Shown here: positions 24,001-27,000 of the stretch, one piece after another
Position numbering within the stretch: the stretch's first letter is position 1
Layout of the letters: each line of letters starts with the position of its first letter
Program-made: the position numbers
Source: Escherichia coli O127:H6 str. E2348/69
GTDB lineage: Bacteria; Pseudomonadota; Gammaproteobacteria; Enterobacterales; Enterobacteriaceae
Reading direction: 5' to 3' (one strand)
Length of the DNA stretch: 64,000 nucleotides
NCBI RefSeq assembly: GCF_000026545.1
Contig: NC_011601.1

Positions 24001-27000
24001 AGGTTTGATATGGGCAGGCATCATTTTTTGCAGGCGTTGCATCAGGTCGCCAACGTTTTTCATCGTTACCCTCTGAATCCTGGTGGAATTTGGCTGTCAG
24101 GTTCGCTGACCGTATTCACATCTCGTTTCGGCAGTCCGCCGTTGCTGGCACGACCGATTTGCAGGCTGCGCGCCAGTTTTTGTTGCCACTGCACATGGTG
24201 AAAGACTTTGCCTTCCGCCTGCCAGTAGGCAATGAATGACGCCAGTTCTTCGGCGGTCACCGGCTCTCTTAGTGCCACGCCCCATAATGCCGCCTGACGG
24301 ATAAAGTCGGTATCGGGTTGCCAGTCTGGGTACATGGCGAATTTCCCCATGGGTACAGCAACGGGAGCGGCTTGCGGTTCCTGATAGAGTTGATCGTCCA
24401 GAGCGACATCGCTTCCCGGACGCGCCAGCTTTTCTTCCAGCGCCAGCAGTTCAGCCAGGCGTGCAGGCGTGACGGCATAAAACGCCGGGGCATTGTTAGC
24501 AAATACGGCAACCACACCGCCTTCAGCTTTTGCCAGAACGGTTTGGTGATCGTGTATCAGGGCGTCAATACCAACGACGTCCGGGGTCAAAACTCTGGAA
24601 GACATACTGTTTCTCAAATATGGAACGATGAACGAGAAGGGAGATAACTTTTATAGTAACACACGGAGGAGAGGAGGCTGTCTCTCATCCGTGTGCTTAA
24701 GCGAGGCAATTTTATACGCGAGGGCGCTTGCGGTACAACCATAATCCAGGAATGGAAAGACCGATGGATAACGCACCAACAATCGATGAAGCTGTAAGAA
24801 AGTTGGTTAACAGGGTAATCATCAACGGTTCGCTGTAACCTAGCTGGCTGATTTTTACCGCCGAAATCATTGCGGTATAAGCTGATATGCCAGGGAACAT
24901 AGGGATAACAGCCGCCACGGTAAACACTTTCGGATGCGCCAGATACCAGCGCGACCATTGAATACCAATGGTGCCGACCAGCATAGAAGCCATAAAAGTT
25001 GACCACTCAATATTCAGCCCGCTGGTCATTAAGATCATTCGGGAACCATGACCTATCGAGCCAAGCAGCGCACACCAGCGTAACGCCCGAACGGGAACGT
25101 TGAACACCATTGCAAAGCCGACCGCTGGAATGGCGGCGAGGATCATATCCTGCGCCAACGCTAACAGAAATTCGATCACACCCATCCGCGTAGCCCCCAA
25201 ATCGTCAGTGCCATCACCACGCCGACGCAGGTAGCCAGTGTCAGCAGACTGGCGATCGCCCAGCGTGCCAGTCCGGTATTGATGTGGCCTTTAAACATAT
25301 CGGCGACGGCATTAATCAATGGAAAGCCCGGCACCAGCAGCAGAACGCTGGCGGCCATCGCAATGGTGGGTGTATTGCTGAAAGTGGGAAGTTGCAAAAG
25401 CAAACCGGAAATGGTGGTGGCGGCGAAAGCGGTGAGGCAAAAGTTGATCTGTGGATGAAGATGACGTTGTGCCAGCAGCTGGCGGATATACATCGCGACC
25501 GTACTGGCAAAGAAGGTGATGACGGCACCATCCCAGCCACCTTTATTGAGTTTACAGAAACAGGCGCAAGAAAGGCCGACCATTAAGGCTACCAGCCATC
25601 TCGGGTAACGTAATGGCTGAATTTGGCTAAATCGTTTCTCTACACCTTTGTAATCCAGCAGATGATGCTCCGCCAGAATCACAATGTGCTGGACTTCAGT
25701 CACCACATGCATATTAATGCCGCGATCGTGATTTTTTCGTGTCGATGTCAGGCATTGCCCATCTTTAATGGTTGTCAGCACTATGGCGTTCGAAGAGATA
25801 GAACTTTCGACGCTGTCCATTCCCAACGCCCGACCCAGTCGTGAGGAAAGCTCATCAACCAACGCGCTTTCCGCACCATGTTGCAAAAGAAATAATCCGC
25901 ACTGGATACAAAGCCGTGTTACGGCTCGCTGTTGCTCAGTTTGCATAACTCGCCCTTTGTCATAGACGTGCTGCGTATTGTTCAGATAATGAGAATCCAT
26001 TTGTATCATGAAGCACGGTTGTTTTGCGGTAGGTTAAGATCAAAATTGCGCTGATTAATCCTGGTTATCGGGAGAAGCTCGGTGATAAGAAGCGAATTAT
26101 CTCTCGCCGCAAACAAATTATCACATGAATATTATCACTATAATGAATTTATTGTTTAGCCTTTACGAATCAGGATAAAAGATAACTGGGCGCGTTTTTT
26201 AATTTTTACAAGTTAAAACTATCAGATTTTATTGAATAAATATTGATTGTGTGATTTTGCATTCTACGGGAAGGGATATCAGTTAATTATAAATTAAACG
26301 AATGAGAATTCTGTTTTTCATTAAGTATTTCTAACAACTTAATGTAGATATTTTAAATGTCTCCAGGCTATTTCACCAGGTTATCATTTGATGCTAACCT
26401 TCTGACACATGCAGTGGAGTTGTTGTGCAGCAGGAGTATGCTGATATGAAAGTGAATGCTAAGGATAATTTATTCGCTTAATCTATTAATTTGCTGGAAA
26501 CATTTAAGGAATGAATATCCTGAATAAACCATCGTAATTTTTAGAAAGTGGATGTGGAGGAAATATGTTGCCAGGATGCTGCAAAAATGGAATTGTTATC
26601 AGTAAAATACCTGTTATGCAAGCAGGGTTAAAAGAGATCATGAGGACTCACTTCCCTGAATATGAAATAATATCCAGCGCCTCTGCGGAGGACCTTACCT
26701 TATTACAATTACGTCGTTCCGGATTAGTCATTGCTGATTTAGCCGGTGAAAGTGAAGATCCACGTTCTGTTTGTGAACATTATTATTCTTTAATCTCGCA
26801 ATATCGGGAAATTCACTGGGTTTTCATGGTGTCACGCTCCTGGTATTCCCAGGCAGTAGAACTGCTCATGTGCCCTACGGCGACGTTATTGTCTGATGTT
26901 GAACCCATTGAGAATCTGGTCAAGACCGTACGTTCCGGCAATACGCACGCAGAGCGTATCAGCGCCATGCTGACCTCTCCGGCAATGACTGAAACTCATG

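Follow-up and report, generated by a model that had tools for sequence, protein, structure and literature searches.

In Escherichia coli O127:H6 strain E2348/69, the 618-bp spacer between the divergent units yjjP(-yjjB) and yjjQ-bglJ is very probably a regulatory region shared by both units and an AT-rich platform silenced by H-NS. It occupies positions 25947-26564 of the 64-kb stretch of DNA analysed here, hereafter the window, and has a GC content of 0.335 (limits taken from the RefSeq annotation and the sequence). Support comes from orthology to the K-12 locus, low GC content, published H-NS and LeuO data, near-matches to an H-NS motif, conserved AT-richness, the pattern of conservation within the spacer, and insertion sequence (IS) elements that disrupt it. 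Composition, orthology, conservation, and the locations of sites were computed in this work. H-NS repression, LeuO activation, and the binding of H-NS, RNA polymerase, and MarA are taken from the literature. The region is already known and ordinary, and its interpretation as an H-NS-silenced control region is supported. Our additions are purely descriptive and comprise a compositional dip found family-wide, a three-part pattern of conservation, and the placement of a MarA box and candidate promoter elements on the E2348/69 sequence.

In the proposed mechanism, the long stretch of AT-rich DNA (A+T about 67% over the whole spacer and 72% in its centre) would act as a binding platform for H-NS, which would oligomerise over the centre and keep the promoter at either end OFF. 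LeuO, a LysR-type regulator, would bind within the spacer and partly counteract H-NS. Further inputs, for instance through the MarA box that lies at 26380-26394, would act in the conserved module next to yjjQ. An IS element or another disruption of the spacer would relieve silencing.

Orthology and boundaries of the spacer

The window matches the chromosome of enteropathogenic E. coli E2348/69 with 100% identity, and the gene order dnaT-yjjB-yjjP<>yjjQ-bglJ-fhuF is the same as in K-12 MG1655. The spacer differs from its K-12 counterpart at 22 of 618 positions (96.4% identity) and is the orthologue of the K-12 yjjP<>yjjQ-bglJ spacer, the site of the published experiments. Among 5426 complete E. 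coli genomes, 5404 cover at least 80% of its length.

The first-pass annotation had delimited about 550 bp of AT-rich non-coding DNA at 26010-26564. This interval falls inside the divergent intergenic spacer of the RefSeq annotation, between yjjP on the minus strand and yjjQ-bglJ on the plus strand. It contains no annotated feature in E2348/69 or in K-12, and the 555-bp stretch was found in 5421 of the 5426 complete genomes, with no feature annotated beneath it. Its left limit has to be moved to 25947, which gives a spacer of 618 rather than 555 bp. A boundary at 26010 presupposes the longest yjjP open reading frame (ORF), of 277 amino acids with an ATG at 26009, whereas RefSeq places the yjjP start at 25946 (256 amino acids) in both E2348/69 and K-12. 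Three lines of evidence indicate that the shorter form is correct. The extension at 25947-26009 accumulates 1-bp indels in other Escherichia species, cross-genus tblastn alignments of YjjP begin at residue 1 of the 256-residue form, and the upstream ATG (26009-26007) overlaps a -10-like element that is kept across genera. The 277-residue frame was accordingly rejected and its extension regarded as non-coding. The 2008 study of Stratmann and colleagues reportedly also speaks of a 555-bp intergenic region, which matches the older definition.

Base composition and evidence for silencing

GC content is 0.328 at 26010-26564, against 0.507 for the whole window. All 555-bp windows of the 64 kb together have a mean GC content of 0.507 and a standard deviation of 0.055, so that the region lies about 3.3 standard deviations lower. 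Only 0.44% of these windows are as poor in GC, and the region forms the second deepest trough of the 64 kb. The minimum over 200 bp is 0.255, in the segment starting at 26111. The contrast with GC-richer flanks to which the first-pass annotation drew attention is thus confirmed and goes far past what chance would produce. The many A/T tracts that it also mentioned are present, with 11 homopolymer runs of at least 4 nt and 10 A/T-only runs of at least 8 nt in the region, but they are not in excess over composition-matched shuffles (p = 0.31 and 0.14). The distinguishing signal is composition, not tract structure.

Published work on K-12 supplies the functional side of the argument. The yjjQ-bglJ operon is repressed by H-NS and activated by LeuO, and derepression of both yjjQ-bglJ and yjjP in hns (stpA) mutants is stated for K-12 together with LeuO activation (PMC5025477; PMC3950696; PMC2646131; PMC4264507; all citing Stratmann et al. 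2008). Expression of the operon in an hns stpA mutant is described in one of these reports (PMC3950696). Genomic SELEX (systematic evolution of ligands by exponential enrichment) detected in vitro an H-NS site and binding of the RNA polymerase sigma-70 holoenzyme in the yjjP<>yjjQ spacer (PMC3946193). That RNA polymerase binds the spacer as naked DNA agrees with promoters that are active by themselves and have to be held down by a silencer. For LeuO, a palindromic core motif of 19 bp has been described (PMC6698644). The orthology to K-12, the reports of H-NS repression, and the SELEX site together uphold the earlier description of the region as the established H-NS-silenced control region of yjjQ-bglJ.

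The sequence itself offers a modest proxy for H-NS binding. The H-NS motif TCGATAAATT has five near-matches with at most two mismatches in the spacer, compared with 1.6 +/- 1.3 in composition-matched shuffles (p = 0.023), and three of the five lie in the centre at 26089-26330. The candidate of a high-affinity nucleation motif was rejected, the matches being of the two-mismatch kind and mildly enriched.

Conserved ends and a hypervariable centre

The spacer is built of three parts, with a conserved promoter-proximal module at each end and a hypervariable centre between them. The centre (26089-26330) is the most AT-rich part, with a GC content of 0.277, and is the presumed main H-NS platform on account of its composition, its variation, and its near-matches to the H-NS motif. 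A preference of H-NS for this part is likewise presumed from the literature. The 2008 study of Stratmann and colleagues reportedly places H-NS binding in the middle of the AT-rich region, distal to the divergent promoters, and LeuO sites both there and across the yjjP promoter. Between K-12 and E2348/69, the 242-bp centre shows 20 substitutions in 244 alignment columns, as against 2 differences in 376 columns for the remaining spacer (Fisher p = 5e-7) and 23 in 695 at flanking third codon positions (p = 0.004). The two promoter-proximal modules hold 0 and 2 differences. Across seven E. coli strains, 16.8% of centre sites are variable as against 3.2% of coding sites, a contrast that is inflated by the choice of these strains by spacer identity. 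The GC content of the centre stays between 0.28 and 0.31 in all seven, E2348/69 being the lowest at 0.277. Between Escherichia species, the centre is essentially unalignable.

Fast-changing sequence at constant A+T, framed by conserved ends, fits a protein that reads composition rather than sequence. A stronger version, in which the AT-rich centre is a silencer constrained in composition only and not in sequence, with GC held near 0.3 despite turnover above that of synonymous sites, is put forward tentatively, as a possibility that we consider somewhat doubtful. If it were true, H-NS-type silencing of yjjQ-bglJ would be an ancient selected state and not a response to foreign DNA. Allelic variation of the centre would then tune the tightness of the OFF state of the operon in each lineage, with E2348/69 carrying the most AT-rich of the seven alleles.

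Insertion sequences in the spacer

IS insertions in the spacer have been described as recurrent adaptive mutations during evolution in the mouse gut, where yjjP expression rose about 2-fold under aerobic conditions (PMC5094792; PMC4674774). A natural counterpart was found in the swine strain XD35, whose spacer carries an IS1 with a 9-bp target duplication, CATGAAGCA, corresponding to window positions 26007-26015 (1219-1985 of locus L083). This IS1 sits between the inferred yjjP -10 element and the remaining spacer. Both the mouse-gut insertions and the IS1 of XD35 fit relief of silencing by disruption. In the cat isolate PS3T (L084), an IS1-associated deletion runs from within yjjP (after 25905) to bglJ (27480) and removes yjjQ. 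The genome searches suggest that, out of 5426 genomes, no more than a few tens have such a disruption.

Conservation across the family and alternative explanations

The comparison was extended to 80 loci encoding YjjQ relatives, one per species, of which 76 allowed both gene starts to be placed. The genera include Escherichia, Citrobacter, Salmonella diarizonae, Klebsiella, Enterobacter, Kluyvera, and Raoultella. Each of these 76 loci of Enterobacteriaceae has yjjB-yjjP divergent to yjjQ-bglJ, and fhuF follows beyond bglJ wherever the retrieved locus extends that far. The 400 bp upstream of yjjQ have a GC content of 0.30-0.44 (median 0.357) in 76 of 76 loci, compared with a median of 0.559 for yjjP. 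The GC content of yjjQ and bglJ across the family is 0.47-0.48, below that of neighbouring genes. Dip and synteny in every one of the 76 loci point to an old, maintained property and not to a recent import.

Several observations weigh against the interpretation of the spacer as an H-NS-silenced platform, or limit it. The spacer contains no match to the high-affinity H-NS motif with at most one mismatch, and TpA steps are slightly below the expectation from composition. Predicted curvature, which the first-pass annotation had proposed as a check, is average (6.94 deg/turn in the spacer and 6.69 in the window, with 38% of windows equal or higher) and adds no support. Local curvature peaks, of which the one at 26032-26045 alone passes the 99th percentile within the spacer, are not beyond those of shuffles (p = 0.26). 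With the wedge-model parameters used, this is a weak test; intrinsically curved H-NS target DNA was rejected on these values as a distinguishing feature. The centre differs by 8% from K-12, so that the strength or details of silencing may differ in E2348/69, and the experiments cited on H-NS occupancy and expression were all performed in K-12. Finally, the assignment of the yjjQ promoter is uncertain, as the predicted -10 element at 26464-26469 disagrees with the segment from -73 to +1 relative to the ATG that a strain-construction note treats as 'the yjjQ promoter' (PMC9678765).

The absence of tract and curvature signals beyond composition is also what would be expected if the region were an ordinary long divergent promoter spacer, AT-rich through weak constraint and AT-biased mutation and without any role in silencing. 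The centre, which changes faster than third codon positions and cannot be aligned between Escherichia species, agrees with such a view. Nevertheless, GC is low upstream of yjjQ in all 76 species despite complete sequence turnover, which speaks for selection on composition, and H-NS repression and in vitro H-NS binding in the spacer have been published. We therefore regard a plain spacer as very unlikely. Recent acquisition of the AT-rich spacer and of the low-GC yjjQ-bglJ genes as a foreign island, silenced as xenogeneic DNA, is highly improbable as well. The composition is suggestive, with a GC content of about 0.45 for yjjQ and bglJ and 0.33 for the spacer as against 0.52-0.54 for yjjP and fhuF, and foreign AT-rich DNA is a known H-NS target (PMC2646131). 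A recent genomic island was nonetheless rejected on the synteny of 76 of 76 loci, which share the same compositional dip, and on the lack of an integrase, a tRNA gene, or flanking or tandem repeats at the borders. Within the spacer, the search for direct and tandem repeats gave nothing meaningful, only one 12-nt family of two copies. Any foreign acquisition of the locus would predate the radiation of the Enterobacteriaceae.

Two further readings concern hidden or decayed genes. The first-pass annotation had suggested that the region could hide small ORFs or small RNAs. The spacer holds 17 ORFs of at least 10 codons. One of them is a 30-codon ATG ORF (26357-26449), and another, of 10 codons (26302-26334), is preserved intact in five of six other Escherichia sequences. 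In addition, three windows on the minus strand have folding z-scores from -2.0 to -2.3. Yet none of the 17 combines a Shine-Dalgarno sequence with intactness across the six sequences. Only two have a Shine-Dalgarno-like sequence, neither being intact beyond K-12 and one close relative, and the 30-codon ORF is broken in three of the six. Three of 42 windows with a folding z below -2 are unremarkable, and the lowest value, -2.28, gives no structural signal. Searches of the spacer returned no Rfam match at E<=1 and no terminator-like site, and the annotations of K-12 and E2348/69 are empty there. Both suggestions were thus dropped, and an unannotated small protein gene or small RNA is considered extremely unlikely.

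The hypervariable centre might also be what decay has left of genes found between yjjP and yjjQ in other genera. Klebsiella, Raoultella, Kluyvera, Citrobacter amalonaticus/sedlakii, and Intestinirhabdus have a spacer of about 2.6 kb with two ORFs in yjjQ orientation, one encoding a 394-residue flavin monooxygenase-like protein and the other an AraC-like protein of about 290 residues. The latter looks AraC-type at its C-terminus by eye. Similarity by tblastn of both proteins to the E. coli spacer is trivial (best E = 0.86, alignments of at most 16 residues), and the probability of a gene remnant is practically negligible; this candidate was rejected. Going by N-terminal sequence, the ORF pair may be pobA/pobR-like, a name that is a guess on our part. 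The insertion between yjjP and yjjQ was observed in loci L008, L009, L025, L028, L041, L070, and L080, and Pseudocitrobacter has the 394-residue ORF only. On the other side of the operon, the gap between bglJ and fhuF is about 43 bp in Escherichia (window 27926-27962), and nearly every other genus has 0.7-2.5 kb of additional DNA there (e.g., 5371-7622 of L012), which reflects either a loss in Escherichia or a gain in the others.

Genes and candidate promoter elements

The gene yjjP (25176-25946, minus strand) encodes a ThrE-family exporter of 256 amino acids (Pfam ThrE, E=1.5e-69), named 'putative succinate exporter YjjP' in K-12. On the plus strand, yjjQ (26565-27290, 241 amino acids by annotation; Pfam GerE) and bglJ (27248-27925, 225 amino acids as annotated; NCBIfam BglJ equivalog, E=3.2e-115; Pfam GerE) both encode regulators with a LuxR/GerE-type helix-turn-helix. 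Their description as overlapping LuxR-type regulator genes was correct, the overlap being 43 bp as annotated. The NCBIfam BglJ profile begins to align at residue 19, a methionine, of the annotated 225-residue BglJ; an alternative bglJ start at 27302 would abolish the overlap with yjjQ (window 27248-27301).

On the yjjP side, an extended -10-like element, TGaTACAAA (26000-26008, minus strand), is the inferred yjjP core promoter, a candidate assignment suggested by its conservation across genera as TGnTA(A/C)AA(A/G) in an alignment of 25 yjjP upstream regions; the corresponding predicted start lies at about 25993. A 26-bp block at 26032-26057 (minus strand), invariant in all seven Escherichia sequences aligned, is a candidate yjjP regulator site. 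Within it, at 26038-26043, is a TTGATC box (GATCAA on the plus strand) that is at least 90% conserved in all six columns across the 25 species and lies 32 nt upstream of the -10-like element. The block coincides with the curvature peak at 26032-26045.

The conserved module next to yjjQ spans about 245 bp, at about 26321-26564. At its outer edge, a 40-bp element on the plus strand (26321-26360), TTAAGTATTTCTAACAACTTAATGTAGATATTTTAAATGT, may represent a distal promoter or a regulator site, as indicated by conservation; in Citrobacter, Salmonella, and Enterobacter it can still be recognised, in the form TTAGnAnTnCTAA...TTTTAAT. A repeat search located an imperfect inverted repeat at 26373-26405, with 15-nt arms that are 80% complementary and 3 nt apart. 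The MarA box GTTATCATTTGATGC has an exact match at 26380-26394, inside the loop-proximal part of this repeat, and is unchanged in E2348/69 and K-12 and conserved in the genus. Chromatin immunoprecipitation sequencing of MarA in enterotoxigenic E. coli H10407 gave a strong peak in the yjjP<>yjjQ spacer, where gcatcaaatgataac was predicted as the marbox (PMC5684230).

Closer to yjjQ, a consensus scan identified the sigma-70 promoter-like pair CTGATA-17-GATAAT at 26441-26469 (plus strand), with a predicted start at about 26476 and a predicted leader of about 89 nt for yjjQ-bglJ. The same hexamer pair was reported as the best match to a yjjQ promoter (PMC3946193). The pair does not vary within E. 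coli and varies very little within the genus, and GGATAA(T/A) is kept in Citrobacter and Salmonella. A Shine-Dalgarno sequence for yjjQ, GGAGG, lies at 26556-26560 (plus strand), 4 nt ahead of the ATG at 26565, with GGAG at least 90% conserved across 28 species.

Other AT-rich regions of the window

The deepest GC trough of the 64 kb, 0.308 at 15682-16236, belongs to a different locus. It lies in an 815-bp divergent intergenic region (15394-16208) between the operon of a TRAP C4-dicarboxylate transporter on the minus strand and a Na+/H+ antiporter gene on the plus strand, and this region looks like a second candidate for an H-NS-type silenced spacer. Further troughs occur at 5594-6148 (0.339) and 6677-7231 (0.333), within 5108-7288, where they cover an AT-rich gene annotated as '3'-5' exonuclease' and its upstream spacer. 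That gene adjoins a truncated type I restriction enzyme fragment, symE, and an Rpn-family nuclease gene, a variable-gene neighbourhood.

Significance and comparison with known systems

The relevance of the spacer follows from the genes under its control. BglJ, in concert with RcsB, activates leuO and bgl, among other loci, and the spacer controls BglJ. YjjQ is listed as a regulator of flagellar synthesis and capsule formation, with flhDC repression as a cited finding (EcoCyc). As the spacer also controls the putative exporter genes yjjPB, the tightness of silencing would affect motility, anti-silencing circuits, and fitness in the gut. The family-wide dip and the three-part pattern are modest additions for the study of how H-NS targets evolve.

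The closest known system is the K-12 yjjP-yjjQ/bglJ region itself (Stratmann, Madhusudan & Schnetz 2008, J Bacteriol 190:926), which is the same locus with the same flanking genes and the same length of 618 bp. The E2348/69 allele differs from it by 20 substitutions in the 242-bp centre and by the lowest centre GC of the seven strains. The region also resembles xenogeneic silencing of AT-rich islands, as the spacer and the genes that it controls lie below the GC content of the flanks and H-NS acts as the silencer. Unlike such islands, however, the yjjQ-bglJ locus is syntenic in all 76 loci and bears no mobility signatures. A further likeness is to the promoters of the bgl operon, leuO, and cas, stretches of AT-rich regulatory DNA that H-NS represses under laboratory conditions and that LeuO or BglJ-RcsB antagonises. 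Their silencing is relieved by LeuO, by hns mutation, or by a nearby IS insertion, as proposed for the spacer. In contrast to these promoters, the yjjP<>yjjQ spacer serves two divergent units and controls the anti-silencer BglJ, which would create a feedback circuit with leuO, a loop reported as not operating at native expression levels (PMC5025477).

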